The notes below the pieces were generated by a model. It had not been told where the DNA came from. It worked only from the letters and a program-made list of their open reading frames with translations, and made no database searches. From positions 9,006 to 73,005 of the forward strand of contig CAYLRA010000003.1 of the NCBI GenBank assembly GCA_964386045.1: DNA of 64,000 bases, written 5' to 3'. Positions 33,043-52,500 of the stretch are shown here, piece by piece; positions within the stretch are counted from its first letter, which is position 1, and the number at the start of each line of letters is the position of its first letter. Position numbers and translations under genes: made by a program. The stretch is from an uncultured Verrucomicrobiaceae bacterium (GTDB lineage: Bacteria; Pseudomonadota; Gammaproteobacteria; Pseudomonadales; CAMLJR01).

Positions 33043-33064
33043 GATGAACTCCGGAGCGATTTCA

Positions 33065-34708: not shown

Positions 34709-36305
34709 ACTTTGTCAGTGTGGGATAGAAGTCGCGCAGGAACTTCTGCAGGCGCTGGTCCGACGCCTCGATCGATGCTCCTTCGGGAACCATCGTCGTG
34801 ACACGTACCAGAGCGCCATCAGAGCGTGACTCCAGCAACGAGTCGACGAAGATGTACCACTTGGCCAGATACTCGTTGGTGATGTTCCTGCCGCGTCCTT
34901 CGAACCAGTAGTAGACGATCTGGGCGTGATGATCCTTGCGGATGATTGCCCTGTTGACGCGCAGGTTATTGCCACTGACATGCCTGACATCATCGATCGA
35001 GATCTGATCCAGTTCGTCCATTCGCCAGCCACCGCCGGGGATGCAGGATCGCGGTGAGTGTATCGATGCGCCTTTCTTCTGTGATGAGTACCAGGCGACA
35101 TACAGGTTGACTGGGGGATCAACGAGCGAAGTACTTGTGCTCCGGTAATCGGCAATGAGGTAGTCGGTCAGCTTGAGTGTGTCCAGGACATCGCGATCCA
35201 GGGCGCCCTCGCGACCGCTCCAGTCGGAGTACTGCAGCGGGAATAGTGAAAGCTTTTCCCGATTCTCGGGTGGCAGCTCTTCTCGGCCACCCAGCGTCAG
35301 AAGCCACGGGGTCATCAGCAACAGCAGGACGGTTCCGCCGAGCAGGGGCATCTGCCGAGAAGGGGATATCGGAAGATCACGCCACTTGAAATCGATTTTC
35401 GGGACATCCAGTTGAAGCTTGTCGAGTATCCGGCCCGGCGTACGAGAAATCTTGTGAAGCAGCATGGCCTCCAGCAGAAGGATGGCCAGACAGCTCATGA
35501 AGATGATCCATCCCTCGAAGTCGTGAAGGAATCCCTCCGCCATCTTGGCGCCCCAGCGATCGACGGTGATGCCGATCAGGCCGATACGGAAGCTATTCAT
35601 CAGCACGGTGATGGGAACGGTGGAAAGGAAAAGAACAGCGCGCTGCCAGAGGGGGGCTTTATAGATGCAGGCGATCAGGAAGCCGAAGCTCATCAAGGGA
35701 AAAAGATACCTGAGGCCGGAACATGCCTCGACCACCTGCAGCTTCATCGCACCGAGATCGATGACGTTGCCTTCCAGATACACAGAGATATCGAAGAGGC
35801 GAATCATCATCACGCCGATCTCTGACGAGATCAGCTGGAGCTGGCTCGACAGATTGAAGTAGATGAAGTTCGGCAGCGGAATCATGAAGATGAGATAGGC
35901 GAGCGGCGCCAGAAGCAGCCGGAATCCCGCTGTACCGAGAAAGCTCAGCACGAATGAAAAAAGTGCGACGAGGAATCCGTACTGGATGACGGTATAGATC
36001 GCGCTCATTTCGCCAAGCACGAAGAGAAATATCGCGAATGCCAGCAGGATGGGTCCCCACCAGGAACCTCGTATCTCCAGGCGTGCGAGATCGTTGATCT
36101 TCTGGTAGATCAGGAATGCGGATACAAACGGAATCATGTATCCATGGTTGTACTCTTCCCGGTCCCACCAGGAGACCATCAGCGCGAGGGAGTCGTAGCA
36201 GACCCACACGAGAACTGCCAGGAAGATGGCGCAGGCCGTCCAGACAAGCGGGGCGTATCTGGAATCTGTCGTCGATATTTTCAAGCTGGATTTATTGGTT
36301 TTCAT
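34698..36305 (-). CDS. xrtA: Exosortase A fused to an EpsI-family domain (XrtA-EpsI)
   Basis: 535 aa. Polytopic N-terminal half with the catalytic Cys motif VVEACSGLRYLFP, the Arg motif NSFRIGLIG and the His motif HDFEGW. The C-terminal half has the EpsI-type SIHSPRSCIPGGGW motif. Confidence 0.85.
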   Translation of the reverse strand: MKTNKSSLKISTTDSRYAPLVWTACAIFLAVLVWVCYDSLALMVSWWDREEYNHGYMIPFVSAFLIYQKINDLARLEIRGSWWGPILLAFAIFLFVLGEMSAIYTVIQYGFLVALFSFVLSFLGTAGFRLLLAPLAYLIFMIPLPNFIYFNLSSQLQLISSEIGVMMIRLFDISVYLEGNVIDLGAMKLQVVEACSGLRYLFPLMSFGFLIACIYKAPLWQRAVLFLSTVPITVLMNSFRIGLIGITVDRWGAKMAEGFLHDFEGWIIFMSCLAILLLEAMLLHKISRTPGRILDKLQLDVPKIDFKWRDLPISPSRQMPLLGGTVLLLLMTPWLLTLGGREELPPENREKLSLFPLQYSDWSGREGALDRDVLDTLKLTDYLIADYRSTSTSLVDPPVNLYVAWYSSQKKGASIHSPRSCIPGGGWRMDELDQISIDDVRHVSGNNLRVNRAIIRKDHHAQIVYYWFEGRGRNITNEYLAKWYIFVDSLLESRSDGALVRVTTMVPEGASIEASDQRLQKFLRDFYPTLTKYAP

Positions 36306-37750: not shown

Positions 37751-38659
37751 TCACGGCAGTAGACCGACCCTGATCAAATCGCGGTCGATGTCACCGAGCC
37801 GCTGCTCGTGCCTTGGATCGACGGCCGGTCGCGCCGCTGCCCTGGCGCTGGCCAGGAGCTGGCGACCTTTTGCCACTGCCTCGACGATCGACCGATCGAT
37901 TGCCTCACGCCCGTCGGCGAAGGCATATACCAATGCCTGATCACTCAAGGTGTTGATGAGACGCGGGACGCCGGCGCTGCATTCATACAGGGCATCCATT
38001 GCATCGGCATCGAACAGCGGTTGGGTGCGACCAGAGACCGCGAGCCGATGAAGGACGTAATCTTCGAGCTCGTTGCGTGTCAGCGGTTCGAGGTGGTACT
38101 CGACCGAGACCCGTTGTGCAATCTGGGAGAGTTTCGGTTGTGCAAGCTGTTCCCGAAGTTCGGGTTGACCGATCAGTACGATCTTCAACAGCTGGTCTTC
38201 ATCCGCATTGATGTTGCTCAGCAAGCGAATCTCTTCCAGTGCTTTGTCGGAGAGATTCTGCGCCTCGTCGACAATCAACAGAACCTGCCGGCCTTCAGCG
38301 TATTCAGTGATGACATACCGCTGAAAGTCGCGAAACAGCGAAATGCTTTCGCGCCCTTCAAACGGCAGGTCGAATGCCGAAGCGACCCAGCGGATGAGAT
38401 GCTGGTCGAAGTCGAGAGTGTTGTTCAGCAAGCCAACGCGGAACTGCTTGTCGTCGAGCTCACGCAGCAGTTGTCGAAGCAGGGTGGTCTTGCCGGCCCC
38501 GACATGGCCGGTCATCACCGTGATGCCGCCGCCGGCATCACCCAGGCCGTAGCGCAGCAGGTTGAGCGCCAGCTGGTGGCGTGGCGAGAGGTAGAGATAG
38601 CTCGGGTCTGGCGCCAGCTTGAAGGGCGGTCGCAGGAGACCAAAGTGCTCCAGATACAT
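37751..38659 (-). CDS. ExeA-like AAA ATPase (XrtA/PEP-CTERM system-associated ATPase)
   Basis: 302 aa. MYLEHFGLLRPPFKLAPDP opening, Walker A GHVGAGKTT and Walker B LLIVDEAQ. Confidence 0.8.
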   Translation of the reverse strand: MYLEHFGLLRPPFKLAPDPSYLYLSPRHQLALNLLRYGLGDAGGGITVMTGHVGAGKTTLLRQLLRELDDKQFRVGLLNNTLDFDQHLIRWVASAFDLPFEGRESISLFRDFQRYVITEYAEGRQVLLIVDEAQNLSDKALEEIRLLSNINADEDQLLKIVLIGQPELREQLAQPKLSQIAQRVSVEYHLEPLTRNELEDYVLHRLAVSGRTQPLFDADAMDALYECSAGVPRLINTLSDQALVYAFADGREAIDRSIVEAVAKGRQLLASARAAARPAVDPRHEQRLGDIDRDLIRVGLLP

Positions 38660-38663
38660 ACTG

Positions 38664-39488
38664 TCACCGCGCCTTGTTGAGGATGGTGCCGAGCAGAGGC
38701 GTGCCCTGCATCAGCTTGAGTGCGCGTTCGACATCGCTGCGACGGCTGACGCCATCTTCGACCACCATCAGCAGTGCGTCCGCGTAGGGTGCAAAGGTCA
38801 TGGCGTCGTCATCGTCGAGCACGGCTGGAAGATCGAAGATGATCAGCCGGGATTCGTAACGGTTGACGATGTCCTGCAGCAACATATTCATGCGCGGCGA
38901 GGAGAGCATCTCCGAGCGATGGCGGGAGCGACGGGCATTCGGCAGCACGACGAGCCGCTCGAAGCCCGGATTGACCAGTGCATCCTTCAGCTCGGCGCGC
39001 CCTTCGAGACAGTCGATCAGATCGCTTTCGACGTCGAGGCCCAGCTTTTCCGCGACGGTCGGGTTGCGCAGGTCGAGATCGACAAGAAGCACCGTCTGGT
39101 TGACCTCCTTCGACATCGAGATCGCGAGGTTGAGAGCGGTCAGGCTTTTGCCGGCGTGGCTGTTCGGGCTGGTGACCGCGAGTGTGCGCCAGCGGTTTTC
39201 GCGCATTTTCTGCAGCACCTGGGTGCGCAGCTGGCGGTAGACCTCGGCGCGCTGGTCGTTGTCGAAACCGGCGACCACCAGCTGGTTGAGCAGGTGCTGT
39301 GGATTTGGGCGCACGGTGCGGGTCTGGGTGTACTCGATTTTATTATTCGATGTCGACGGGCTGGGTCGCTGGCGTTGCGGCTCGGCGACCGCGGTGGTCT
39401 CTGCGCGATCACGCTGCTCTCTGGCCTTGTCGATGGCGCGTTGGATGAAGTCCATGGCAGGTTGCTCCAAAAGGTCTGTTCGACTCAA
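38664..39488 (-). CDS. Chain-length-determinant tyrosine-kinase-like ATPase (BY-kinase catalytic-domain type)
   Basis: 274 aa. P-loop TSPNSHAGKSLTALNLA and LLVDLDLRNP with MinD/ParA-like topology. Its start overlaps the upstream stop by 4 nt. Confidence 0.8.
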   Translation of the reverse strand: MSRTDLLEQPAMDFIQRAIDKAREQRDRAETTAVAEPQRQRPSPSTSNNKIEYTQTRTVRPNPQHLLNQLVVAGFDNDQRAEVYRQLRTQVLQKMRENRWRTLAVTSPNSHAGKSLTALNLAISMSKEVNQTVLLVDLDLRNPTVAEKLGLDVESDLIDCLEGRAELKDALVNPGFERLVVLPNARRSRHRSEMLSSPRMNMLLQDIVNRYESRLIIFDLPAVLDDDDAMTFAPYADALLMVVEDGVSRRSDVERALKLMQGTPLLGTILNKAR

Positions 39489-41233
39489 AGGCCAAGTTTG
39501 CGCAGCGCGACGAACCAGAGGACGTCGAGCGGCTTGTAGGCGATGTGGATCAGTGACAGCGTGATGATGACCAGCACCACGCTCGCGCCCAGCACGATCG
39601 CCCAGCGATACGAGGTTGCCGGGCGATCATCGCCGGCAGTGAACAACGGGATCGTGGCAAGTGGCGGGGCGGTGATGAGATCCGTCAGATCGCGCTCGCC
39701 ACGAATACTTTCGTCCATGATCTCGGCTGCCGCCACCATGCCGGCGCCGCAGAGCCCGGCAAGCAGCAGGCCAACCAGAATGATGGCTACACGGTTCGGA
39801 CTGACCGGCTCTTCGGGCCGGATCGGTGGTTCGATCAGCGTGAAACGCTCGCCCTTGCGTTCGGTTTCCAGGTTGCGTGCCAGCTCGGCCTGCAGCAGCT
39901 TGAAGCTGATCTCCTGGTATTTGGCCGTGGTCGTCGAGAGGTCGCGCATCAACTCCTGGTAACGTTTCTCGACATCCGGTGCCCTGGCGAGGTGGCTTTC
40001 GAAGCGGGTGATTTTCTCTTTCAGGTCAGCGGCTCGCTGCTCCAGCACGGCACTCTCTGCTTCGATGCTGCGGATCTGTGTGTGAAGCAATACGTAGGCC
40101 GGATTGTCTGCGCGTGGTGCGGTAATGCTGTCGGGGGCGGTGGGATTGGCCGCAAGCGAACTGACCAGACGCTGCTGCTGCAGAACCTCGGGATGGTCGG
40201 GTTGATAGCTGCGCTGCAGCTGCGCCAGTTTGTCCCGCTCGGCCTGCAATATTTTGAGCTGGGTATCGTCACTGCTGTCGCCGAGTTCGCGGCGCAGCGT
40301 CTCCACTTCGCGCTGCAGGCGACGTATGTCGGGATGGTTGTCGTTGTAGACCGAACTTTTACTGCGCAGCTCGGATTCCAGTGCGCGAAGGCGATCCTGA
40401 TCGCCGAGTACCATCTCGCCAGTCGGTAGCGTGGTGGGTGCATAGGGGCTGAGCTGGGCTATGTTGGCCTGCAACTCCAGCCGGCGCTTGGCCAGCTCGG
40501 AGAGGCGCATACGGGTGTCGCGCAGCTCGGCGTCGGTGCGCTCGACGACATTGATGTTGTACTGATAGAGCTCGGGCAGTGCCCCTTCGTTGGCTTGCTT
40601 GAAATTCGAAAGCTCCTGTTCAAGATCGAGAATTCGCTGATTCAGTGCTCCCGACTCGCTTTTCAGGAACTGCGAGGTGGTGGCAGTTTTTTCGGAGCGG
40701 GTCTTCAGGTTTTCGTTCAGGTAGAGACTGACCAGCTCATTGGCGACTCGGCGGGCGATATCGGGGTTGCGATGGTCAAAGGCGAGCTTGAAGGCGATGG
40801 TGGCCTCCATCGGGCGACCAATGCGCGGATCGATTACTTCGGCGCTGACCAGCTCCAGCCCCATGTCGCGCTGGAAGTCCTTCATGATTTCGGTGCGGGG
40901 CGTGCGCTTGAGTTCTACCTCATCCAGCAGGCCATATTTCTCGACAATGCCGATGACGTTGGCAAGGGTCATCGTGCGCTGGGTGATGACGTTGATCTGC
41001 TGGTTCGCGTAACCGGTGATGGTGGAGCGCACCAGATCCTGCGGGATCTCCTGCTCCTCGATCAGTATCGTGGCGCTGGAGCGGTATTTGGCGGGCCACA
41101 GCAGTGCCGTGAGCAGAGCCAGCACCATAACGATCGCAGCCGGAATGAAAAACAGCTTGCGTCGGCGGAGGAATATCCGACGCAGATCATTTGCCGAGAG
41201 TTGTTTCTCGTCGAAATCCATGGCCATGTTCAT
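39485..41233 (-). CDS. Polysaccharide chain-length determinant (Wzz/GumC-like, PEP-CTERM locus type)
   Basis: 582 aa. N-terminal TM plus the PAKYRSSATILIE Wzz motif, a long coiled-coil periplasmic region and a C-terminal TM (VAIILVGLLLAGLCGAG). Confidence 0.8.
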   Translation of the reverse strand: MNMAMDFDEKQLSANDLRRIFLRRRKLFFIPAAIVMVLALLTALLWPAKYRSSATILIEEQEIPQDLVRSTITGYANQQINVITQRTMTLANVIGIVEKYGLLDEVELKRTPRTEIMKDFQRDMGLELVSAEVIDPRIGRPMEATIAFKLAFDHRNPDIARRVANELVSLYLNENLKTRSEKTATTSQFLKSESGALNQRILDLEQELSNFKQANEGALPELYQYNINVVERTDAELRDTRMRLSELAKRRLELQANIAQLSPYAPTTLPTGEMVLGDQDRLRALESELRSKSSVYNDNHPDIRRLQREVETLRRELGDSSDDTQLKILQAERDKLAQLQRSYQPDHPEVLQQQRLVSSLAANPTAPDSITAPRADNPAYVLLHTQIRSIEAESAVLEQRAADLKEKITRFESHLARAPDVEKRYQELMRDLSTTTAKYQEISFKLLQAELARNLETERKGERFTLIEPPIRPEEPVSPNRVAIILVGLLLAGLCGAGMVAAAEIMDESIRGERDLTDLITAPPLATIPLFTAGDDRPATSYRWAIVLGASVVLVIITLSLIHIAYKPLDVLWFVALRKLGL

Positions 41234-41262: not shown

Positions 41263-42513
41263 TCAGCGTGACCAGCGTTTTTCGGTCGGCTTCCAGATGA
41301 CGCCGAGCCTGGCGACATGCGAGTCGATAGGGTCGCCATTCTCATACTGCTGTGAGCGGTACTGATAACTGCACTGCAGCGACCAGTGCTCATCGAGCTG
41401 GTGGCCGTAGGTCAGCGTGCCGTAGTGATAGTCGCGCGAAGGGTTGAAGCGGTTGCTGGGGTAGTTGCCGGAGACTTCATTGTTGCCGACGGTAACCTTG
41501 GCCGACAGCGTGCCCTGTTCGAACAGGCGGTGGCTCCATTCGAGATCGAGCTGCTCGGAGACCTGCACATAACCAACGGACGAGGGCTGGGTGCGCCGGG
41601 AGATGCGCGTGCTCAGTGTGTTGCGGGTTGTGCGCCAGCTCAGCGATCCGTCAATCGTCGTTAGTTTCGAGGTCGACTCTTCGAGTGTACAGAGCGGGAA
41701 CAGGGGGAGCAGCTCGAACTCCTCGGCGAAGGAGCAGACGTCGGCAGGGTCCTGCACGCTGGGTGTCGATTCATTGCGCGAGCGACCAGCCATGAGGGAA
41801 AGGGTCAACGTTTCGGAAATCTGGTATTCACCACCCAGCAGCAGCCCCCACTCCGTGGAGCGGGTATCGTAGCTCTGGCCGGCTGCCGCGACGATGGTGT
41901 CGGACTGATAGTCCGAGTAGACCAGTTGCGCGAAGGTGCTCAAGCGTTCGTTGAGGGCGTGGCTCCAGAGCAGGCTGCTGTTCCAGTATTGGTAGTCGAC
42001 ATAACCGTCGTCGAGGTAGCGGCTGTCGATGAAGCTGGCGCGCAGTATCAGCAGATCGTGCTCGCTGATCTGGTACTCCGCATAGGGTGTGATGGTGTAC
42101 TGCTCATGCCTGCCGGCACTGCCGACACGACCGCTGTCGAGAAGCTCGCTGGTCAGTGTCGAATTGCGCACGCCGCTCAGGTCCAGCCCGATCGCGCTGC
42201 GTTGCCATTGGTGGCGGGTACGCACATTGAGCGTCTGGTCGTCGCTGTCCAGACCTTCCATGCCGTATCGGCGCGACAGCAGGGTCAGGTCGACGTTTGC
42301 ATTGGTGGTTTCGCTGTTCATGCCGGCGTCAAGTCTCGCGGCTGCCAGATGCCCCGCGCTCGACTGGGCCGGTTCGCTCATCAGCAGGTTGCTGTCGTGA
42401 TTGGCCTCCAGTCGCAAATGTCCCCCGACGCGATATTCGGTGGCGCCGCTCGCATTTGCCATGAGCAGTAGAGCCATCGACAGAAGATGGGGGCGTATCC
42501 CTCGGCCTTTCAT
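41263..42513 (-). CDS. Predicted outer-membrane beta-barrel protein of the PEP-CTERM locus
   Basis: 416 aa. Signal peptide (LLSMALLLMANASGA), then alternating-polarity strands rich in Y/W/S/T. ATGA overlap with the export gene. Its position matches the uncharacterised beta-barrel of exosortase loci. Confidence 0.55.
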   Translation of the reverse strand: MKGRGIRPHLLSMALLLMANASGATEYRVGGHLRLEANHDSNLLMSEPAQSSAGHLAAARLDAGMNSETTNANVDLTLLSRRYGMEGLDSDDQTLNVRTRHQWQRSAIGLDLSGVRNSTLTSELLDSGRVGSAGRHEQYTITPYAEYQISEHDLLILRASFIDSRYLDDGYVDYQYWNSSLLWSHALNERLSTFAQLVYSDYQSDTIVAAAGQSYDTRSTEWGLLLGGEYQISETLTLSLMAGRSRNESTPSVQDPADVCSFAEEFELLPLFPLCTLEESTSKLTTIDGSLSWRTTRNTLSTRISRRTQPSSVGYVQVSEQLDLEWSHRLFEQGTLSAKVTVGNNEVSGNYPSNRFNPSRDYHYGTLTYGHQLDEHWSLQCSYQYRSQQYENGDPIDSHVARLGVIWKPTEKRWSR

Positions 42514-43094
42514 GGCACGACCACAATGTCGCCGCTGTGGAGAAGGGAGTTGTTGCTGAGGCCTTCGCCCTGCTTGACGTCGCCATAGCGGAATCGGCGT
42601 GAGTGCTGCGTGCCGTTGGCGTCGCGGTGCAGAACGTTGATGGAATTCTCGGCGGCAAAAGCATTGAGACCGCCCGCGAGGGCCAGTGCCTGCATTACGT
42701 CGATCGGCTGGGTGATCGGGTATTCGCCGGGGCGATTGACCTTGCCCAGTACATAGATCTTGTAGCCGGAGGTCTGGCGCAGCGAGACGGTGACGGTCGG
42801 TTCGTCGCGCAGGTAGCGGGTGAGTGCCTGGGAGATATCTGCCTCGATATCGGCGATGTTCCGGCCGCGTGCATGAACATGGCCGGCGAGGGGGACGGAG
42901 ATCCCGCCGTCGGGCCTGACCAGCACTTCCCGGCTGAGCGTCTCTTCGTTCCAGATGAATACCTCCAGAATGTCACCGGCGTTTACAGCGTAGCCATCAG
43001 GCGCGGATGGTCGCTGGTCATCGGCAGCAGCGCCGGCGCAGGCCAGGACGGAGATGGCGAGAAGGAATGCGCGTACAAACAGGTTCTTGAACAT
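42510..43094 (-). CDS. Periplasmic polysaccharide export protein (Wza-N/Poly_export + SLBB, EpsE-like)
   Basis: 194 aa with a signal peptide. GYAVNAGDILEVFIWNEE...VRPDGGISVPLAGHVHARGRNIADIEADI is the Poly_export signature. Confidence 0.8.
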   Translation of the reverse strand: MFKNLFVRAFLLAISVLACAGAAADDQRPSAPDGYAVNAGDILEVFIWNEETLSREVLVRPDGGISVPLAGHVHARGRNIADIEADISQALTRYLRDEPTVTVSLRQTSGYKIYVLGKVNRPGEYPITQPIDVMQALALAGGLNAFAAENSINVLHRDANGTQHSRRFRYGDVKQGEGLSNNSLLHSGDIVVVP

Positions 43095-43274: not shown

Positions 43275-43940
43275 TCAGCTCTTGGCGTCGCTGTTTTCCA
43301 GCGCCAGCTTGGCGCGGCGACGACGTACCAGGGTCAACGCGACCAAAGCGGAACCAAACAGCGGTAGCGTATCGCCCAGCGGAACCGGGGTGACGTCGGC
43401 CGAACCGTAGTAGAGCCCGCCGACCAGGCCGGCCGCCTTGCCGGAGACAGTCAGTGTGTACCAGCTGTCCGCCTGCAGGCCGCTGAGGGTGAGCAGGCCG
43501 TTTTCGCCGATCGTGCCCAGCAGGTTGCCGCCTTCATCGAACAGCGATGCGGTCAGGAACTTGTTGTCGAACAGCGAGGTAACAATCGCGTCGTTGAGCT
43601 TCTGGTGTTTCTTGTCGTGCTGATAACCCTTGCCATGGCTGTCCGGAACGAGGAAGGGCAGGGAGAGATTGAAGTCGGAGAGGGAGAGTGTCACGTTGCT
43701 GGTTTCGGCGAGCGAGAAACTCCAGCTGTCGAAGAACCCCTTGCCTGAATGGTTGAAGTTTCCGAACAGGTAGCTGCCGGTTTCGAGATCCTGATTCAGG
43801 TATTTTTTCAGCGACAGCGCCTGTAACGCCGACTCGTTCTCCCACGGCATGCCACTTTCGGCGTTGATGGCATGGGCCGAGAAGGGGAGGGTGAGTGCGA
43901 GTGAGACGGTTGCGTAGGTTGCCAGTTTTTTCAAAAACAT
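43275..43940 (-). CDS. Secreted PEP-CTERM-type protein (substrate 2) with a C-terminal tail
   Basis: Start at the ATG at 43940 (GGAGA 6 nt upstream). Signal peptide MFLKKLATYATVSLALTLPFSAHA. The C-terminus TPVPLGDTLPLFGSALVALTLVRRRRAK is followed by 10 more residues (LALENSDAKS). Confidence 0.7.
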   Translation of the reverse strand: MFLKKLATYATVSLALTLPFSAHAINAESGMPWENESALQALSLKKYLNQDLETGSYLFGNFNHSGKGFFDSWSFSLAETSNVTLSLSDFNLSLPFLVPDSHGKGYQHDKKHQKLNDAIVTSLFDNKFLTASLFDEGGNLLGTIGENGLLTLSGLQADSWYTLTVSGKAAGLVGGLYYGSADVTPVPLGDTLPLFGSALVALTLVRRRRAKLALENSDAKS

Positions 43941-44749
43941 GGTCGTTCTCCAGAAATGGTTGGGGGTTCCGTGTGGTTCCGTTTGGTTGAACGGAATATG
44001 TATAAGCATCCTTGGTAGATGAACCTCTGGACAGGTTGGCGGAGCCTCACGCTTCTCGCACTTCGAATGCTCAGGGAATGAATTTCGCGTAAATATAAAG
44101 TGCACGCTTCTATTCCATTGGGTTGTTATTTTCTTTGTGTATCTGCGCCGTTATACGTTGACACTCTATCAATCCAAACACACTCAATATAAGTGCCACC
44201 GGCGAAGATAGTTTTGTTATTCAATGGAATACATCTCATCCCGATCGCTTTGTTTTCTTCCGTGTAAAGAATCGTGACGGCGCAAATGGCGAATCCATGC
44301 AGGCTGTCGCGTCGCCGGAATATACATCAAATGCCGCTCCGTAAATAAACCGTCCATCGTTTGGTTTTGCGATCGACGTGTCACCAATTTGCTGGCTTTA
44401 CGTCACCAGCTTGCATAACGCTACCTCACCCATGCGGGCAATTGTGTGATTGAAACCAAAAATTCATAGATAGATTGCATGACAAACGTCATCCATTTGG
44501 ATGGCGATATTTTCATGGGTGTGTCACCTGTCCTGCGTAGATTCCGGAAGGTCCGATGGCGGTGTCCTGGCATCGGCGGCTCCGGGAGTCGCGCCTACTG
44601 GCTCAGCAGCATGCGTTCGTAACACGGTTTGTCGGTCGCTTGCATTGCCAGATATTCAATAAAGATTCACCGGAACCGCCTGTACCTGACATCTGCCTCC
44701 GCGATAACTGCTGCGGACTGCAGCCGGGATATTTTTTCCGGATGTGGTC

Positions 44750-44845
44750 GGACAACGGAACTGCCACCCCCGTCGCGAGGCGGGCTCGGAAAGCCACGGG
44801 TCTCTTGTTGGACAGTTGGGGAGAGACGGCCGGGTTGCCACCGTG
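44750..44845 (+). promoter_or_regulatory. c-di-GMP-I (GEMM-I, type 2)-like riboswitch aptamer, copy 1
   Basis: UGCCACC-CCCGUC-GCGA-GGCGGG-CUCGG-AAAGCC-A-CGGGUCUC-loop-GAGAC-GG-CCGGGUUGCC. Contains a GNRA-capped helix, a second long helix and the AAAGCC / GGGUUGCC junction strands in GEMM-I order. Sits 135 nt upstream of a PEP-CTERM CDS, and a second copy is at 47690. Confidence 0.6.
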
Positions 44846-44979
44846 AAAGCGAAGGAGCGGGTCGCGTGGCAGTTCAGTTCGTGCAGGACCGCTGCGTACC
44901 AGCCTCCTTCGAAAAGCGTCGCTTCTTGTTGCATTGATGCACAACGCACTTTTCACAGGCACCTTTGGAGGATTTGGTA

Positions 44980-45777
44980 ATGAAGAAAGCAGTTTTGGCA
45001 CTGACGGCATCGCTGGCGGTCGTCTCCGGCGCGAATGCGGCCTGGGATCCGGGCACCGAGGGAAGCTATTCGATCGGCAATGGTGAGCTGCTGCTCTCCA
45101 TCTACGATCCGGTCAACCAGCACTCCTACAGCCATGACCTGGGCATCCGTTTCGACGATATCCGCGCCGGTACCGTCAATACGACGATCGCGCTCGACCC
45201 GGCCCATCTGGCCGTATTCGGTGGCGACTTCAGCAACGTGCGGTTCGATGTTTTCGCGGCGAGCAACAGGGTCGAGGCCGACGGGGGTAATACGTTTATT
45301 GCCACCAACGCGGGCATCATGTACTCCCTGCAGGCTGGCCAGACTCCGTTCGGGACTGACGCGAACACCAACGTGGCGGTCGTCAGCAACTACTGGGGTC
45401 TGTTCCAGCAGAATGCGGTTGGCATCGGCTTCAATATTTCTCCCGACGAAAACCCCGTCACCAGCCGGGCCAATGGCGCGCCCGGCTATGCCTACGCAGA
45501 GGGCGAGTGGTCGCACTTTTGGGAGTTCAACTTCAATCGCCGTACCAGCGGTACCGACGGCGAAACCATCGAGCTGTGGCTTAAGGGCTTCACTCAGGAT
45601 GACGGTTACGGCGATCCGCTCGATCTGCTGGTGGGTCACATCACGCTGAACCTGACTGGCGAAGGCGGTCCTTCGGTGCACGTCGCCGCCGTGCCGATTC
45701 CGGCCGCCGGCTGGCTGCTGGGCTCCGCGCTGCTCGGTCTGGGGGGCATCGCCCGCCGCCGTCGCTCGCAGGCCTGA
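44980..45777 (+). CDS. Secreted PEP-CTERM-anchored protein (substrate 3)
   Basis: ATG at 44980 with GGAGGA 7 nt upstream. Signal peptide MKKAVLALTASLAVVSGANA. Textbook C-terminus VPIPAAGWLLGSALLGLGGIARRRRSQA. Confidence 0.8.
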   Translation: MKKAVLALTASLAVVSGANAAWDPGTEGSYSIGNGELLLSIYDPVNQHSYSHDLGIRFDDIRAGTVNTTIALDPAHLAVFGGDFSNVRFDVFAASNRVEADGGNTFIATNAGIMYSLQAGQTPFGTDANTNVAVVSNYWGLFQQNAVGIGFNISPDENPVTSRANGAPGYAYAEGEWSHFWEFNFNRRTSGTDGETIELWLKGFTQDDGYGDPLDLLVGHITLNLTGEGGPSVHVAAVPIPAAGWLLGSALLGLGGIARRRRSQA

Positions 45778-45853: not shown

Positions 45854-47410
45854 ATGAAACTGAAAGCGCTCTCGATCGCCGTCGCCGCCAGCTCGCTGCT
45901 GGCCGGCGCGGCCCACGCCATCGTGCCGAACGCCGCCAGCGGCTTCGAGGCACTCGCTGTCTCCGCCAACGCCAAGCTCTACGCGGCCGGCGCATCGGCC
46001 CAGGATGGCGCGGTCATCGGCCATGTGCTGAGCAACCTGTGCGTCAGCGACCGCGACCTCTATACCGACCGCACTCCCGCCCAGATCACCGCGGGCACCT
46101 TTGTCGGCAGCAACGATACCTCCGTCGCCTGCGTCGTCTCCGAATCCGCGCTCGGCGCTGATCTCAACGGCAACGGCAATACGGCCGACAGCGCCCCCTT
46201 CCTGTTTCGCAAACTGACCGCCGGCGGCTCTGCCAACGGTGTCATTCCGGTGGCCAATGGCACGCCGGCCACCGCCGCCTCTCGCGCGATCAACACCAGC
46301 AACTGCCAGCAGGTGGGCGCCACCCACACCGTTCTGGGCACCCCGGGCGTCCGCGTCTGGAGCTGCGGCACCGCCGGCCAGCAGGCCGTCATTCCGACCG
46401 TCGGCCTGGCCGATGTCGAGCCCGAGCTGTTCGCCGAGGGTGGTCCGAACGCCATCGGCTCGTTCAATCTGGCCAACATCGACACGCTGCCGACGCTGTC
46501 GCTGACCTTCGGCGTGCCGGTCACGCTGAACCTGCGCAATGCGCTGCAGCAGGCACAGGGGCTGACCTCCGGCTCCGATGCGTTGGCCGACATGCCGTCG
46601 CTGACCAGCGCCCAGCTCACCAGCCTGTACAGCGGCAAGATCGGCAGCTGGAATAGCTTCGAGAACGCCGCTGGTGCCAAGCTGCCGGCGCTGGCCACAG
46701 TCGGGCCGGTGAACGACCGCGTCCATGTCTGCCGCCGCACCGTTGGCTCTGGCACCCAGGCCACCGTCAACGCACTGTTCCTGTCTAACCCGTGCGGTCC
46801 GGGCCGGATTGCACCGGCAGTGGACAACACCGCGCAGACAGCGACCGATGGTACGGGCAACTACGCCACTCTGCCGTTCGGTGGTGCCGCCGCCATTCAC
46901 GAGCTTGCGAGCTCCGGCGGTGTGAATACCTGCCTCGATACGCTGCAAACCCAGAACCGCTGGGGTATCGGTATCCAGACGCTGGAGCAGGGCAACAACA
47001 ACTGGCGTTTCATCAAGGTCGATGGCTACGCGCCGACGCTGGAGAACGTCGCCGCCAACAAGTACTCCTTCTGGGCTGAAAACGTCATCACGGTGCGGTC
47101 GAACCAGGCTGCCAACAGCGTCTCCAGGGCGTTCTTCACCGGCTTCCGCCCGGCACAGGATCTGGCCGAGCTGAACGCGACGTTCAACCCGCGCATCACC
47201 GAGGTCTCCGCGTCGATTGCCAACGGTCGCTGCGACAATGGTGAAACCTGCGTTGGCTACCTCTATCCGTTCAATTACACGGGTGGCGCGGTGCCAGCTC
47301 CGTTCCAGAACAGCGTGCCGACGATGTCGGCCACCCGCGCCGGTCTTTCCGGCCAGGGCGCTCCCAGCATGTGCCGTCCCTCGATCATCCAGACCGATTC
47401 GGTGCTGTGA
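45854..47410 (+). CDS. Secreted periplasmic-binding-protein-like (PstS-type fold) protein with no transporter partner in the window
   Basis: 518 aa. Signal peptide MKLKALSIAVAASSLLAGAAHA. PstS-like segments include LTSAQLTSLYSGKIGSWNS, RRTVGSGTQATV and IKVDGYAPTLENVAANKYSFW. Family assignment is by pattern only. Confidence 0.5.
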   Translation: MKLKALSIAVAASSLLAGAAHAIVPNAASGFEALAVSANAKLYAAGASAQDGAVIGHVLSNLCVSDRDLYTDRTPAQITAGTFVGSNDTSVACVVSESALGADLNGNGNTADSAPFLFRKLTAGGSANGVIPVANGTPATAASRAINTSNCQQVGATHTVLGTPGVRVWSCGTAGQQAVIPTVGLADVEPELFAEGGPNAIGSFNLANIDTLPTLSLTFGVPVTLNLRNALQQAQGLTSGSDALADMPSLTSAQLTSLYSGKIGSWNSFENAAGAKLPALATVGPVNDRVHVCRRTVGSGTQATVNALFLSNPCGPGRIAPAVDNTAQTATDGTGNYATLPFGGAAAIHELASSGGVNTCLDTLQTQNRWGIGIQTLEQGNNNWRFIKVDGYAPTLENVAANKYSFWAENVITVRSNQAANSVSRAFFTGFRPAQDLAELNATFNPRITEVSASIANGRCDNGETCVGYLYPFNYTGGAVPAPFQNSVPTMSATRAGLSGQGAPSMCRPSIIQTDSVL

Positions 47411-47514
47411 TCGCGGCAGTCTGATATCGGTACCGTGTGATATCGGTGACAGCGTGTTGTGATATCGGCAACAGAAAGTCGCCAAAGGCCCGGTGCAATG
47501 CCGGGCCGCGTTTG

Positions 47515-47544
47515 GAAGCCGGGATATTTCCCGGCTTCTTTTTT
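47515..47544 (+). terminator. Rho-independent terminator
   Basis: GAAGCCGGGA-TATT-TCCCGGCTTC followed by TTTTTT. It separates the PEP-CTERM/PBP-like transcription unit from the TPS leader. Confidence 0.85.
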
Positions 47545-47689
47545 CAACGTATGAAAAATGTATGTCGTTTTGTCATCGGTTCGTATTTCGATGCGACGAC
47601 AGGATGCGTGAAATAAAGTTCAGGAAATTTCTGCGTTTTCACAAAAGGTTCAACGCAACGTCATCTGCGCCGGCTACCTTGGCGCAGCG

Positions 47690-47775
47690 TTTTCGAGTGC
47701 CACCCCCGTCGCGAGGCGGGTCCGGAAAGCCGCGGGTCTCGTCCCCTGATGAGACAGCCGGGCTGCAATGTGTCT
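47690..47775 (+). promoter_or_regulatory. c-di-GMP-I (GEMM-I, type 2)-like riboswitch aptamer, copy 2
   Basis: Shares an identical 23-nt core (TGCCACCCCCGTCGCGAGGCGGG) and the CGGAAAGCC, CGGGTCTC, GAGAC and GCCGGG blocks with copy 1. The second-helix loop differs in length (10 vs 18 nt) and one pair changes G-U to G-C. Sits about 115 nt upstream of tpsB. Confidence 0.6.
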
Positions 47776-47890: not shown

Positions 47891-49531
47891 ATGGAATCGA
47901 TGAGTTTCGGTAATGCTGGGGGTGCGACGGATTCATCGCGCGGTGCGTCGGGATTTTTTCTCGCCCGGTTGCTCGTTGCGATCGCGTTTTCAATCGCGTT
48001 TTTGATCGTCCTCACCTCCCGATCCGTCGCCGATGAGGTGGAGAGCCGCTTCGATATCTGGGAGTACCGCATCGAGGGAAACTCGCTGCTCGATACCGAC
48101 AGGATCGAACTGGCGGTGACGCCGTATCTGGGACCGCAGCGACTGATCGAGGATGTCAACGAGGCGGCGGCCAATCTCGAGCGCACCTATCGCGACGGTG
48201 GCTACCCGACCATCTACGTCGACATTCCGGAGCAGGATGTGGTCGGCGGCGTCGTCACGCTGCGCGTCGTCGAGGGCAGGCTCGACCGCGTGCGGATCGA
48301 GGGGTCGCGTTACTTCACCCTTTCCGGCATCCGCCACAGGATGCAGTCGCTGGAGTCGGGCAAGCCGCTGCATGTGCCGACCATGCAGCGGGAGCTGCAC
48401 GCACTCAATGCGCTGTCGCCCGACCTGAAGGTGGTGCCGGTATTGAAGCAGGGCCGCACGCTGGGCGCCGTCGATCTCGATCTGAAGGTCAACGACCAGC
48501 TGCCGCTGCACGGTTCGGTCGAGCTGAACAACTACAACTCGGCCAACACCAGCGATACGCGCCTTGGCGTCTCGCTCAGCTACGACAACCTGTGGCAGAA
48601 GCAGCACAGCTTCGGCATGCAGTGGCAGACCTCGCCGGAGGATATGGATGAGGTCGACGTGCTGGTCGGCACCTATATCGCGCCGTGGTTCGACAGCGGC
48701 AATCGCATCGCCGCCTATATCGTCGATTCCAGCTCCAATGTCGCTTCCGTCGGCGATATCAACGTGATCGGCGACGGCACCATCTACGGCGTGCGGTTCG
48801 TCATGCCGCTGCCCTCCGGGCGCGACTTTTTCCACTCGCTGAACCTGGGCGCGGATTACAAGGACTACAACGAGATCATCCGCCTCGACGTCGAGAGCGC
48901 GATCCAGACACCGATCGACTATCTGGTCTGGTCGCTCCAGTACAACGCCACGCAGATGCGCGAGAAGAGTCGGGTGCAGTGGAATGTCGGTGCCAATTTC
49001 GGCGTTCGCGGCATCGGCAACTCCGACGAGGAGTTCTTCGACAAGCGCAGTTCGGCCCACAGCAATTTCGTCTACCTGCGCGCGTCGATGCAGCGCACCG
49101 ATCTGCTGCCGCGGGACTGGCAGCTGCGCTCTACCGTCCGAGCCCAGCTCAGTGATTCGCCGCTGATCAACAACGAACAGTTCAGCCAGGGCGGCGTGAG
49201 CAGCGTGCGTGGCTACTACGAGTCACAGGCGCTCGGGGACGACGGCATCGGCATCGGTTTCGAAGTGCGTACACCGCATCTGCTGACGAGGTTCGACGCG
49301 ATCGACGAGCTGCGCCTGCTCGCCTTCCTGGAAGGGGCGCATCTGCGGGTGCAGGAGCCGCTGCCCGATCAACTGGACGAAGTGAATCTGGCCAGCGTCG
49401 GCGTCGGCCTCGCCGTATCGGCGCGCAGGCAGCTGCATCTCTCGCTGAACTGGGGTTTCGCGCTGCGCGACAACGGCGGGATCGACGCTGGCGATGACCG
49501 TCTCAACGCCGGACTGGAATGGAAATTCTGA
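47891..49531 (+). CDS. TpsB transporter (ShlB/FhaC/HecB family, POTRA + 16-strand Omp85-type barrel)
   Basis: 546 aa. Signal/TM FFLARLLVAIAFSIAFLIVLTSRSVA. POTRA-like FDIWEYRIEGNSLL...VTLRVVEGRLDRVRIEGSRYF. C-terminal barrel ending ...GLEWKF (aromatic terminus). The exact start is uncertain. Confidence 0.85.
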   Translation: MESMSFGNAGGATDSSRGASGFFLARLLVAIAFSIAFLIVLTSRSVADEVESRFDIWEYRIEGNSLLDTDRIELAVTPYLGPQRLIEDVNEAAANLERTYRDGGYPTIYVDIPEQDVVGGVVTLRVVEGRLDRVRIEGSRYFTLSGIRHRMQSLESGKPLHVPTMQRELHALNALSPDLKVVPVLKQGRTLGAVDLDLKVNDQLPLHGSVELNNYNSANTSDTRLGVSLSYDNLWQKQHSFGMQWQTSPEDMDEVDVLVGTYIAPWFDSGNRIAAYIVDSSSNVASVGDINVIGDGTIYGVRFVMPLPSGRDFFHSLNLGADYKDYNEIIRLDVESAIQTPIDYLVWSLQYNATQMREKSRVQWNVGANFGVRGIGNSDEEFFDKRSSAHSNFVYLRASMQRTDLLPRDWQLRSTVRAQLSDSPLINNEQFSQGGVSSVRGYYESQALGDDGIGIGFEVRTPHLLTRFDAIDELRLLAFLEGAHLRVQEPLPDQLDEVNLASVGVGLAVSARRQLHLSLNWGFALRDNGGIDAGDDRLNAGLEWKF

Positions 49532-52500
49532 CGATGAAAGTTCGCCGCCTCGATCGCCACTCTGATCGCCGCCTCGATCTCCACCCCGGGAGCACCATGA
49601 CTGAGAGCAGCATGGATTCGCGCGACTGGCGGCAGCGGCCGCTGCCGCGCCTGCTGGTGGCCGTCACCTGCTCGGCACTGCTGTTCAGCAGCAGCGCGCC
49701 GCTGTATGCCGCGCCGCCGGTCAATGCGCTGCCGGTGGCGGCGGGCAACTGGCTGCAGGCGGGCAGTGCGGCCAGCGCCACCGTCGGCAACGCGATGACG
49801 GTTACCCAGAGCAGCAACCGGGCGATCCTGAACTGGGAGAGTTTCAACATCGGTCGCGACGCGTCGGTGCGTTTCGACCAGCCGTCGGCGTCGGCGTCGG
49901 CGCTGAATCGCATCGGCGGCAACGCGCCGAGCGAAATCTTCGGCCAGCTCAGTGCCAACGGCCAGATCTACCTGATCAACAACAACGGCATCCTGTTTGG
50001 TGAGGGCGCGCAGGTGAACGTGCGCGGCCTGGTCGCGTCGACGCTGAATATCGACAGCGACCAGTTCCTGAACGGCACGCTCGGCAGCGCCATTGCCAGC
50101 GGCGATGCCATCTTCGCCGGCGGCTCCGCCGTCGATGCCGCGATCATCGTCGACAGCGGTGCGCGTCTGGTCGCCGAGAGCGGAGGCCAGATCCTGATGT
50201 TTGCGCCGACGGTCGAGAACCGCGGCGAGATCGTCACGCCGGACGGGCAGACGCTGCTGGCCGCCAGCAGCGATCGCGTCTATCTGGTCAACTCCGATCG
50301 CGACTCCGACCTGCGCGGCCTGCTGGTCGAGGTCGGCACCGGCGGCGACGTGCGCAATGTCGGCCGCATCATCGCCGAGCGCGGCAACATCACGCTGGCG
50401 GGCCTCGCCGTCAACCAGGGTGGCACGCTGCGCGCGACCACGTCGGTCGACGTCAACGGTTCGATCCGGCTGGTGGCGCGCGATGGCGCGACGGCGGTGA
50501 ACCGCTCCACGTCGACGGACAACCGTTTCATCGCCAACCAGTTTCTGGATGGCGCCGACGAACTGACCGGGACCAGCGGCGACTACCTGCCGCAGGCGAC
50601 CCGCACCGGCACGGTGACGCTGGCGCAGGGTTCGCTCACCGAAGTGGTCGCCGACGACAGCGGCAAGAGCGCCACCGACGCGGCGCTGCAGCCGCAGTCG
50701 CGTATCCAGATGCTCGGCGCCACGATCGCGCTGGAGCGCGATGCCCGCGTGCGGGCGCCGGCCGGGCGGGTCGATCTGGTCGCCACCACCGATCCCGCAA
50801 CCGTCCCCCGACCGGGCGAGGCGAGAATCGGCGACGGGCGCATCCATCTCGCCGAGGGCAGCAGCATCGATGTCTCCGGCGAGCATGTGCTGTTGCCGGT
50901 GGAGCGGCGCACGATCGAAGTGGAGCTGCGCGGCGACGAGCTGAAGGATGCGCCGCTGCAGCGCGACGGCGTGCTGCGCGGCAAGACGGTGCGCGTCGAC
51001 ATCCATCAGGGCAGCCCGCTGATTTCCGATCTGTCGCCGTGGCTGGCGACGGTGCGCAAGGGGGTGCGCGAGCGGATGACGGACGGCGGCACCGTCAATC
51101 TGCTCAGCGCCGGCGAGGTGGTGGTGGCCGGTGGGGTCATCGATGTTTCCGGTGGCAGCATCAGCTACGAGGCCGGTCCGGTGAGCACCACCAAACTGTT
51201 GTCGCTCGGCGGGATCGTCGACATCGGTGTCGCCAATCCCAACCAGCGCTACGACGGCATCCTCGGCCAGGGCGAGTCGATCCATCCGAAGTGGGGCAAG
51301 ACGATCTTCGGCAGCAACTCGCTGTTCGAGCGCGGCACCTGGCACGACGGTTACACCGACGGCGCCGGCGGCGGCCTGCTCAATATCGAGACGCCGCTGC
51401 TGTATGGATTCGATCGGCTCGATCTGCGGGCGCACACGGTGCAGGGGCAGCGCCAGCGCATCGCCGCCATCGAGCCGTCGGCGTCGCGGCTCAACGTCAA
51501 TCTCGCCGTCGGCAACAGCATCGTCGAGCGCATCCTGCGGTTGTCACAGCAGGCGTCGAGCCAGTCACTGGCGGTCGGCGACGCGATTCCCGGCGACGCG
51601 GCCGACACGCCGATGATGATCTCTGCAGAGGCACTCAACCGCAGCGGCATCGGCAGTATCGCGCTGAAGACGCATGGCGATGCCGAGGTGACCGCCGATG
51701 CCGACCTGCAACTGCGCCCCGGTGCAGCCATCGCCATCGACGCGGCGACCATCACCGTCGACGGCAGGCTGCGCAGCGCCGGTGGTTCGATCGCGCTGAC
51801 CACCGGGCAGCAGCCGGTCGCCGTCACCGACGCCAATGCGCAGTTCCCGCTGCGGCTCGGCGCCGGCGCGCTGCTCGATGTCAGCGGCAACTGGAGCAAC
51901 GATCTGTTCGAGACGGCGCGCGGTGCTGTGCCGACGGGTCGCGTCGCGCGCGATGGTGGTTCGATCGAACTGTTCGCCGATGGCGATCTGCTGATCGCCG
52001 ACGGCGCGCGGCTGCTGGCCGATGCCGGCGCGCAGTTGACCAGCGGCAACCAGCTGATCGGCGGCGACGGCGGCCGCATCGCGCTGACCACTGACGCGAC
52101 CGTCAACGACGATGCCGGTTCGCGGCTGCAACTGCCGGCCGATGCGCTCTCCGCGTATGGCTTCGGCCGCGGCGGCACGCTGTCGATCGAGGCCAATGCC
52201 ATCGCGGTCGGCGAGGCGTCCGCCGATCCGCTGACGCTGCTGCTGGACGAGGCGTTTTTCGCACGCGGCGGTTTCGGCAGCTTCGAGCTGAATGCCAACC
52301 GGCATGGCATCCGCATCGCCGATGGCGCGTCGATCGCGCTGCGCCAGCGCAACTACGAGATCAACGATATCCAGGCCGCCTCGCGGCAGCGCTCCGGCGA
52401 CAGCGTTTCGCCGCTGGCACGCATCGTGACGCTGCGCGACGAACTGCGCGGCGCGGTCGACCTCTCGCTGACCGCGGTGCGGGGCGCGTTCGGCGCGCTC

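Follow-up and report, generated by a model that had tools for sequence, protein, structure and literature searches.

Does the second messenger cyclic dimeric guanosine monophosphate (c-di-GMP) act directly on the transcript of an exosortase-sorted surface protein? The question is raised by a leader within a 64,000-nt stretch (hereafter the window) of contig CAYLRA010000003.1, from the genome of an uncultured bacterium (GCA_964386045.1), in which a first-pass annotation had proposed a GEMM-I-type riboswitch upstream of a PEP-CTERM protein gene. Judged by its CysRS, whose closest named relatives belong to Spongiibacteraceae metagenome-assembled genomes (79-80% identity), the source is a Cellvibrionales-like gammaproteobacterium. 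By every feature examined in its sequence, the element at 44753-44842 on the plus strand is a genuine, ordinary member of the c-di-GMP-I class. It seems rather probable that this aptamer is functional and that it works in the leader of a two-gene operon as a translational ON switch, through a four-strand relay. The biofilm signal would then probably control a VPLPA-CTERM surface protein directly at the RNA level. Such control would form a direct link from c-di-GMP to a substrate of VPLPA-CTERM/XrtD sorting. To our knowledge, little is known of how and when exosortase cargo is made.

The leader carries a c-di-GMP-I aptamer

The whole 64-kb window was scanned with Rfam models on both strands (128 kb of searched strand). 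Only two matches reached gathering thresholds, and both are to RF01051 (c-di-GMP-I): 44753-44842 and 47689-47770. The first scores 47.3 bits in cmscan (E = 4e-06) against a gathering score of 35 and covers the model at full length (positions 1-87), which bears out the proposed GEMM-I-type aptamer. A custom covariance model, R1, built from the first five aptamers, gives it 111.3 bits. The aptamer ends 135-138 nt upstream of the ATG at 44980, on the same plus strand, and the layout is the same in 10 other loci. All strings and bases cited were checked by script and by reading of window positions 44500-45300. The aptamer is made up of the following parts.

44755-44758, plus strand: P1 5' strand ACGG, forming four standard pairs with CCGU at 44841-44844
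44763, plus strand: equivalent of G20, an unpaired G directly before the first hairpin in the RF01051 alignment
44764-44789, plus strand: first hairpin (P1a in Rfam, P2 in the first-pass annotation), with CC...GG outer pairs and a CCCGUC/GGCGGG stem
44790, plus strand: equivalent of A47, the first A of the AAA linker, and not the G that defines RF03167
44792-44836, plus strand: second hairpin, with bulged A44796, a GG bulge at 44828-29 and an 18-nt apical loop, and without the 11-nt tetraloop receptor
44838, plus strand: equivalent of C92, the C after the second hairpin in the RF01051 alignment

The first hairpin is capped by a GCGA tetraloop of the GYRA type (44775-78), and the AAA linker joins the two hairpins in the context GG-AAA-GCC (44788-44795). 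The apical loop of the second hairpin measures 18 nt, as previously described, if GUCUC (44800-04) pairs with GAGAC (44823-27). The receptor columns are deleted for this aptamer in the cmscan alignment. The pairing of ACGG with CCGU as P1 had also been foreseen and stands, but CCGU lies at 44841-44844; positions 44842-45, where it had been placed, read CGUG. The P1 5' strand is kept as (A/G)CGG in seven of the eight complete orthologous leaders, and other complementary sequences replace the stem in L168 (GCUG:CAGC) and L073 (ACAGCG:CGCUGU).

G44763, A44790 and C44838, already singled out as key bases, fall in the columns that we take to be G20, A47 and C92 of the Vc2 crystal structures. By analogy with Vc2, the G20 equivalent would contact one guanine of c-di-GMP, and an A in its place would indicate 3',3'-cyclic GMP-AMP (cGAMP). 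The A47 equivalent would intercalate between both guanines, and the C92 equivalent would form a Watson-Crick pair with the other guanine. All three are invariant in the 20 complete aligned aptamers of the set described below.

At permissive thresholds the top scorer of the clan over 44753-44842 is RF03167, the c-di-GMP-I-GGC variant, with 50.9 bits versus 47.3 for RF01051. This could mean that the leader senses a different ligand, either that of c-di-GMP-I-GGC or 3',3'-cGAMP, as in GEMM-Ib, which we consider very improbable. The RF03167 score lies below that model's gathering score of 59, and the variant-defining position is A44790, not G; the GGC variant was rejected on both counts. Furthermore, the aptamer of L168 (2934-3016) passes the RF03167 gathering score with 62.6 bits despite an A at the defining position, which shows that the higher RF03167 score stems from the lineage's receptor-less architecture and not from the variant base. 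The RF03167 model can mislabel canonical receptor-less c-di-GMP-I aptamers of this lineage, as it does in L168. Members of GEMM that are selective for cGAMP typically have an A at position 20. Taking that position to be diagnostic, we rejected GEMM-Ib as well, because G44763 stands there.

A 23-nt block, TGCCACCCCCGTCGCGAGGCGGG, is identical at 44762-84 and in the second aptamer of the window at 47698-47720. The first-pass annotation had pointed to this shared block; the identity is real but marks no special link between the two copies, as the block recurs in aptamers of other genomes. It is the lineage consensus of the first hairpin and is found unchanged or with one or two substitutions at both riboswitch positions of those genomes. 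The differences listed between the copies are also real, namely a G-U pair (G44793/U44835) versus G-C and a bulged A44796 versus G47732.

The downstream gene encodes a predicted XrtD substrate

The aptamer precedes two genes that form a probable operon, and a cognate exosortase is encoded on the other strand.

44967-44972, plus strand: Shine-Dalgarno (SD) sequence GGAGGA, 8 nt before the ATG at 44980
44980-45777, plus strand: coding sequence (CDS) of the VPLPA-CTERM protein, 265 amino acids (aa), with a signal-peptide-like N terminus, a beta-rich body and a sorting signal at residues 238-262
45854-47410, plus strand: second gene of the probable operon, 518 aa, with weak PBP_like_2 similarity, always found after the 265-aa gene
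34698-36305, minus strand: xrtD, a VPLPA-CTERM-specific exosortase, 9 kb from the 265-aa gene

The 265-aa protein matches TIGR03370 (VPLPA-CTERM) with 30.2 bits against a cut-off of 25.35, which narrows the earlier description as a PEP-CTERM-type protein to the VPLPA-CTERM variant. The nearby exosortase is XrtD (TIGR04152, 573.8 bits versus a cut-off of 400), not XrtA as had been supposed. The protein thus has both marks of a VPLPA-CTERM/XrtD substrate, a sorting signal that scores above the cut-off and an encoded cognate XrtD. The link suggested earlier between c-di-GMP and an exosortase substrate would run by way of this XrtD substrate; a precedent is listed in Methylophaga nitratireducenticrescens GP59 (PMC12530212).

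The protein has no Pfam family match and is present as an identical entry (P0001) in the database searched. Only seven homologues were found among 5.8 billion sequences, compared with about 40 for the 518-aa partner. Its AlphaFold model is beta-rich and of medium confidence (pLDDT, the predicted local distance difference test, 63.6), and the model has no match in the PDB at E <= 0.001.

Conservation and covariation of the aptamer

Relatives were collected as contigs around homologues of the 265-aa protein and of the 518-aa partner. The real orthologues were recovered via the partner of about 520 aa, not via alignment of the 265-aa protein. In 10 further loci (L numbers) from metagenomes or metagenome-assembled genomes, which comprise nine distinct leaders, the aptamer precedes the orthologous gene. 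It stands before the gene of about 265 aa in L002, L005/L006, L007, L171, L172, L174 (cut by the contig end), L176/L177 and L178, and in L004 its last 22 nt are visible at the contig end. A rescan at the RF01051 gathering threshold covered the orthologous loci other than L004 and L176, and all complete aptamers in it score at or above that threshold.

The aptamer core hardly varies among the nine closest orthologous leaders and shows no covariation there, while the encoded proteins are 38-56% identical. We regard a near-invariant core beside such diverged proteins as strong evidence of selection. Covariation becomes visible in a wider set of 21 related aptamers beside VPLPA-CTERM genes, 20 of them complete in the alignment. 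Standard pairs fill 96.3% of cells across the 21 aptamers; sliding the partners by 1-3 columns lowers this to 25-48%. Fitting the alignment to the model favours the structure, but the contrast with the slid controls is nonetheless clear. Compensatory changes on both sides occur in 12 of the 18 pairs, values reached by none of 500 shuffles. They affect all six inner pairs of the first hairpin and six of ten pairs of the second. Orthologous leaders thus carry the aptamer, and its structure covaries in the wider set.

These data bear on whether the element could be a chance match or a decayed relic without function. That explanation is effectively refuted, and we found nothing in its favour. The 128 kb of searched strand yield no more than two matches, each of which exceeds the gathering score. 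Orthologous leaders keep a nearly unchanged core although their flanks and proteins have diverged, and the wider aptamer set covaries.

The expression platform

Between the aptamer end at 44842 and the start codon at 44980, neither a consensus scan nor a scan for U-runs and hairpins found an intrinsic terminator. Because the leader lacks one, we infer that the riboswitch acts on translation initiation. Together with the last bases of the aptamer, the region holds the following elements, some of which face the ribosome-binding site (RBS).

44836-44849, plus strand: proximal strand UGCCACCGUGAAAG of a universal long-range helix, overlapping the last pair of the second hairpin (P3), C92 and the P1 3' strand
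44850-44911, plus strand: hairpin H1, composed of minimum free energy (MFE) helices, with the SD mimic CGAAGGAG (44850-57) and the anti-aptamer strand GUGGCAGUUC (44866-75) in its 5' arm
44886-44911, plus strand: 3' arm of H1, holding the anti-RBS strand
44895-44913, plus strand: anti-RBS strand, in which CGU, ACCAG and UCCUUCGAA are complementary to AUG, UUGGU and UUUGGAGGA (44964-44982)
44916-44947, plus strand: small hairpin H2, variable among orthologues
44950-44961, plus strand: distal strand UUUUCAC-A-GGCA of the universal helix, pairing with 44843-49 and 44836-39

In the window, GAACUGCCAC (44758-67) and GUGGCAGUUC (44866-75) form a perfect anti-aptamer helix of 10 bp. It includes the 8-nt match reported in the first-pass annotation, between AACUGCCA at 44759-66 and UGGCAGUU at 44867-74. 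These strings, as well as CCUCCUU (44903-09) and its alternative partners AAGGAG (44852-57) and GGAGGA (44967-72), lie where they had been placed. The switching helices are thus real in the window and stronger than described, but they are conserved in only about half of the leaders or fewer. The best duplex between the 5' half of the aptamer and the spacer has -26.4 kcal/mol, compared with -17.1 +/- 3.1 for shuffled spacers (z = -3.0, 0 of 300 as good). The anti-RBS duplex, where the H1 3' arm is complementary to the SD plus AUG over 19 nt, has -16.5 kcal/mol versus -11.5 +/- 2.0 for shuffles, 2% of which are as good.

Forcing the anti-aptamer helix costs about 2 kcal/mol (ensemble -95.5 versus -97.7 unconstrained) and reduces the unpaired probability of the SD to 0.00. 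In folds of the growing transcript the helix is the MFE structure from 44876 until H1 is complete, after which the MFE flips with small changes in length. The modelling points to a bistable leader. Similarly significant anti-aptamer helices are found in L002 and L172, with different sequences, so that three of eight leaders have one. Where an anti-SD strand is present, its flank tracks the flank of its own SD, as in ACCA:UGGU in the window, GCC:GGC in L172 and CGUU:AAUG in L174.

We propose the following relay. Binding of c-di-GMP would lock P1, the junction and G20, and GUGGCAGUUC would stay in H1. H1 would hold the anti-RBS strand (44895-44913), the SD and AUG would be free, and translation would be on. 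Without ligand, GUGGCAGUUC would pair with GAACUGCCAC and H1 would open, so that its 3' arm could pair with 44964-44982 and translation would be off. A second anti-aptamer helix, between 44836-49 and 44950-61, would serve as an extra lock of the apo state that excludes the ligand pocket (C44838) and P1.

This second helix is present in 10 of 10 leaders and was overlooked in the earlier description of the platform. It joins UGCC/GUGAAAG (44836-49) with UUUUCAC/GGCA (44950-61). The ten orthologous leaders have a variable spacer of 67-101 nt between two nearly invariant blocks. The proximal strand UGCCACCGUGAAAG is unchanged in eight of the ten; L177 has A for G as its last base and L171 has C for U as its first. 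The distal block follows the pattern UUUCAC-N1-2-GGC(A/U), with UUUCAC and GGC invariant in all ten leaders, and it always ends 17-20 nt before the AUG. In every leader GUGAAAG:(C/U)UUUCAC forms 6-7 of 7 pairs and UGCC:GGCA forms 3-4 of 4, giving duplexes of -11.4 to -14.4 kcal/mol. L177 has one compensatory change from G-C to A-U. For the window, L005 and L007, MFE folding selects this helix, which makes up nearly the whole unconstrained ensemble there. The helix takes up C44838, two bases of the P1 3' strand and the last pair of the second hairpin, and is therefore incompatible with the ligand-bound aptamer. We read it as a probable second anti-aptamer lock of the apo state, which would also bury the U-rich stretch just upstream of the SD.

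Judged by eye, the universal helix of the window could be extended into the SD via the P3 3' strand. L172, L007 and L004 do not share this extension, and it was rejected. The heptamer UGCCACC flanks the aptamer twice, at 44762-44768 (starting at the base before G20) and at 44836-44842 (starting at the base before C92). Either copy is thus available for pairing with the conserved distal GGCA, and the MFE structure of L005 uses the 5' one. Codons 4-6 of the CDS, GCAGUUUUG (44989-44997), are complementary to CGGAACUGC (44756-44764), which spans the P1 5' strand, the junction and G20. This 9-bp pairing enters the full-length MFE structure; it is not conserved in L005 and is probably due to chance for that reason.

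Direction of regulation

Of the steps proposed, the direction of regulation is the least certain. We favour, with moderate weight, activation of translation by c-di-GMP, because the relay in the window frees the SD when the aptamer is locked and buries it when it is not. A second reason comes from the leaders of the remote homologues L147 and L168, which have strong intrinsic terminators (-28.0 and -20.7 kcal/mol, respectively) with the aptamer 3' side as their 5' arm, the classical ON arrangement. Terminators that use the aptamer 3' side occur in 78 of 322 GEMM instances (PMC1950547). In equilibrium models of the bound state, accessibility of the SD rises in L002, in L172 and, at two longer constructs, in the window. 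The result depends on leader and construct length, so the modelling is not decisive for the sign.

Several observations weigh against activation by this relay. In the same models SD accessibility falls in L007 and L177, so the direction is inconsistent, and accessibility of the AUG mostly falls. Models of nested structures predict that the unliganded window ensemble consists mostly of the universal helix together with an intact H1, leaving the SD free. The anti-aptamer helix is not significant in L005 (the closest relative, with two uncompensated mismatches), L007, L171, L177 and L178. A CCUCC-type anti-SD is found in five of ten leaders and is missing in the other five. Judged as a translational switch overall, the element lacks a terminator and has anti-aptamer and anti-RBS helices that are strong in the window and present in only 3-5 of 8-10 orthologues, with models that disagree on the sign. 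The universal helix varies so little in either strand that there is nearly no covariation to prove its formation. In addition, a consensus scan found no sigma-70-like promoter or transcription start upstream of the riboswitch.

The drop in AUG accessibility is what would be expected if the same aptamer repressed translation on binding c-di-GMP, with the proximal strand as a decoy. The UGCC/GUGAAAG sequence at 44836-49 resembles the start AUGAAG/AAA. Without ligand it would hold the distal strand (44950-61) and leave the RBS open. With ligand the decoy would be locked in the aptamer, and the freed UUUUCA would pair with UGAAGA (44981-86) in a hairpin over the SD and AUG. The unpaired probability of the AUG drops in the bound model from 0.81 to 0.39 in the window, from 0.88 to 0.09 in L005, from 0.49 to 0.34 in L002 and from 0.63 to 0.35 in L007, and UUUUCA:UGAAGA or an equivalent appears in the bound-state MFE structures of three of four leaders. 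This model is also suited by the universal helix, which all 10 leaders keep at a constant distance from the AUG. The unconstrained ensembles of the window, L005 and L007 consist mainly of this helix, with G_alt 0-1.2 kcal/mol from G_free, and in L007 and L171 a local SD hairpin (GCUUCU:AGGAGU) loses two pairs when the universal helix forms. However, the hairpin between distal strand and start is weak (-4 to -7 kcal/mol), and shuffled distal blocks are equally stable (means of -4.4 to -7.9). The start sequence AUGAAAAAA merely encodes the common MKK start of signal peptides. Repression would also have the opposite sign to the terminator-type leaders L147 and L168, and it opposes the strong anti-aptamer/anti-RBS relay of the window itself. 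We therefore consider repression unlikely, though worth carrying forward. As an anti-start-codon element in its own right, the distal strand was rejected on the shuffled controls and survives only within this rival model.

The absence of a consistent SD-sequestering logic in the ten orthologous leaders leads to another explanation, in which a real aptamer controls Rho-dependent termination, RNase access or transcript stability in the 135-nt leader and the RBS helices are secondary. Control through Rho or RNase E is known from other riboswitches. The universal helix stops about 6 nt before the SD and does not cover it, which also fits this explanation. The constant spacing of 17-20 nt between distal strand and AUG points instead to the RBS, as does the 19-nt complementarity of the H1 3' arm with the SD and AUG in the window, and we judge a non-translational output improbable.

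A conserved four-gene cluster with two riboswitches

Downstream of the first operon, the window encodes a two-partner secretion (TPS) system with a riboswitch of its own.

47514-47549: terminator-like hairpin and T run after the 518-aa gene
47689-47770, plus strand: second c-di-GMP-I aptamer (RF01051, 43.5 bits), preceding tpsB
47891-49531, plus strand: tpsB, of the ShlB/FhaC type, with ShlB and POTRA_2 domains
49519-60249, plus strand: tpsA, 3576 aa

Where contigs are long enough, the order is conserved as the VPLPA-CTERM protein of about 265 aa, the protein of about 500-520 aa, TpsB and TpsA (about 3500 aa). This four-gene order is seen in L004, L007, L008-L010, L171, L172, L174, L176/L177 and L178. 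The conserved partners of the regulated gene are therefore the protein of about 520 aa and the TPS system. Genes for polysaccharide export recur as neighbours in some loci only (L171, L178). The link to exopolysaccharide (EPS) and exosortase is, given the conserved partners, only part of the picture. The second aptamer precedes tpsB in the window, L172, L173/L174, L176/L177 and L178; R1 and Rfam scans found none at this position in L171, L007 and L004.

Conservation of the cluster, usually with two riboswitches, suggests that its uncharacterised proteins and a filamentous-haemagglutinin-type adhesin act together in a biofilm programme. We can also envisage, more tentatively, a three-state switch within a dual-riboswitch module. 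A lineage-variable anti-aptamer/anti-RBS relay would be combined with an invariant long-range helix of 11 bp, in which the strand of the ligand pocket is joined to a U-rich standby site (-30 to -19). If this were true, c-di-GMP would separately gate the XrtD-sorted protein with its partner of about 520 aa and the adjacent TPS adhesin. Exosortase sorting and TPS secretion would then be tied into one surface programme controlled by a second messenger.

The same four-gene cluster occurs in L008-L011, with homologues that are 28-29% identical. Rfam and R1 scans detected no c-di-GMP aptamer at either position in these loci. The full-length remote homologues L093 and L147 (25-27% identical) do have an aptamer upstream. 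A gene for a HAMP-GGDEF-EAL protein lies just upstream in L008, and c-di-GMP control may be exerted differently in L008-L011. Sub-threshold matches to the Caulobacter sRNA CC0196 (RF01519; 30.6 bits versus a gathering score of 35) were found on the minus strand in L008 (5479-5536), L009 (5393-5450) and L010 (3451-3508). They fall between the gene of about 520 aa and tpsB, the gap held by the second riboswitch in other genomes, and are probably chance matches or a terminator hairpin.

To sample the VPLPA-CTERM class more broadly, we used 160 loci from two collection scans with the alignment of the 265-aa protein. These scans were steered by the sorting-signal peptide and returned mostly unrelated VPLPA-CTERM proteins, so the loci serve as a class sample and not as orthologues. 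R1 detected a GEMM-I aptamer in 15 of the 160; about 10 of these aptamers share the strand of the VPLPA-CTERM gene and lie no more than 250 nt before its start. About one in 16 sampled VPLPA-CTERM genes thus has an aptamer directly upstream, which suggests that the association recurs.

Comparison with known systems

The window aptamer resembles the type examples of RF01051, Vc2 (Vibrio cholerae tfoY leader) and Vc1 (gbpA leader), in its two hairpins, short P1, AAA linker and position in a 5' leader. It also shares the G20, A47 and C92 equivalents, a GNRA-type tetraloop on the first hairpin and a score above the gathering threshold. In contrast to Vc2 and Vc1, it combines a GCGA loop with the absence of the 11-nt receptor, the base of its first hairpin is CC/GG and not GC/GC, P1 is only 4 bp and the 3' junction is 2 nt longer. 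The expression platform is a 135-nt multi-helix domain, not a terminator. With c-di-GMP-I-GGC (RF03167) it shares the receptor-less architecture and the higher score; the A at position 47 and 50.9 bits against 59 place it outside that family.

The proposed mechanism has a parallel in the adenine add riboswitch of Vibrio vulnificus, a translational ON switch with an anti-aptamer/anti-SD relay. As in add, the proposed strand in the window would pair with either part of the aptamer or the anti-SD strand, and ligand would free the SD. Ligand and aptamer differ between the two, the relay in the window spans about 230 nt, and a second, more conserved anti-aptamer helix coexists with it.

A GYRA tetraloop with a missing receptor is a described GEMM subtype, in which the receptor accompanies only a GAAA loop, and the linker between the hairpins is virtually always AAA (Weinberg et al. 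2007, PMC1950547). The same study tabulated GEMM elements upstream of fhaC-type (TpsB) genes (Table 2, PMC1950547). The second window aptamer (47689-47770), which precedes a ShlB/FhaC-family gene, is like these. It differs in that its TPS pair forms the downstream half of a four-gene cluster whose first half has its own riboswitch.

Our literature search on an association between GEMM and VPLPA-CTERM genes found a single report, PMC12530212. That 2025 paper lists c-di-GMP riboswitches beside one VPLPA-CTERM and three PEP-CTERM genes in M. nitratireducenticrescens GP59 (Ribo4-7). It gives the riboswitches and transcript levels, without structure, platform or direction of regulation. Riboswitch class and downstream gene class are the same as in the window, and the GP59 genes also lie near genes for exopolysaccharide biosynthesis or export; the downstream proteins of GP59 belong to different families.

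The c-di-GMP-I class, the receptor-less subtype and the occurrence before fhaC-type genes and beside VPLPA- and PEP-CTERM genes are already on record. Apparently new are the conserved four-gene cluster, usually with two riboswitches, and the invariant long-range helix in the first leader. For specialists the locus offers a useful annotation and a hint at a regulon, and no surprise.

Genomic neighbourhood

In the TPS region, tpsB and tpsA overlap by 13 nt (49519-49531), and the next gene, for a 614-aa protein (60246-62090), shares 4 nt with the end of tpsA. The C-terminal part of this protein is TolQ/ExbB-like (TIGR02796, 131.6 bits, below the cut-off).

The exosortase locus lies entirely on the minus strand and comprises, with xrtD at 34698-36305, the genes at 30616-33153, 37751-38659, 38664-39488, 39485-41233 and 42510-43094. 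It is complete, with XrtD and a PrsT-like TPR lipoprotein (TIGR02917) that both score above their cut-offs. An ATPase, a tyrosine autokinase, a chain-length determinant and an export protein match models of the XrtA system below their equivalog cut-offs. The locus may be an XrtD-type counterpart of the XrtA EPS locus.

A divergent gene at 43275-44105 on the minus strand encodes a PEP-CTERM protein resembling the FxDxF family (NF038126, 35.3 bits, below the cut-off of 50) with the C terminus VPLGDTLPLFGSALVALTLVRRRR. The Rfam scan of the window found no riboswitch belonging to this gene. About 90 nt upstream of the aptamer, the palindrome AATCTT-N5-AAGATT followed by CAC(C/T)G is conserved in the window (44651-44667), L005, L172 and L178. 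Its window copy, GATATTCAATAAAGATT, is imperfect. The palindrome could be an operator or part of a promoter, in which case it would add transcriptional control on top of the riboswitch.

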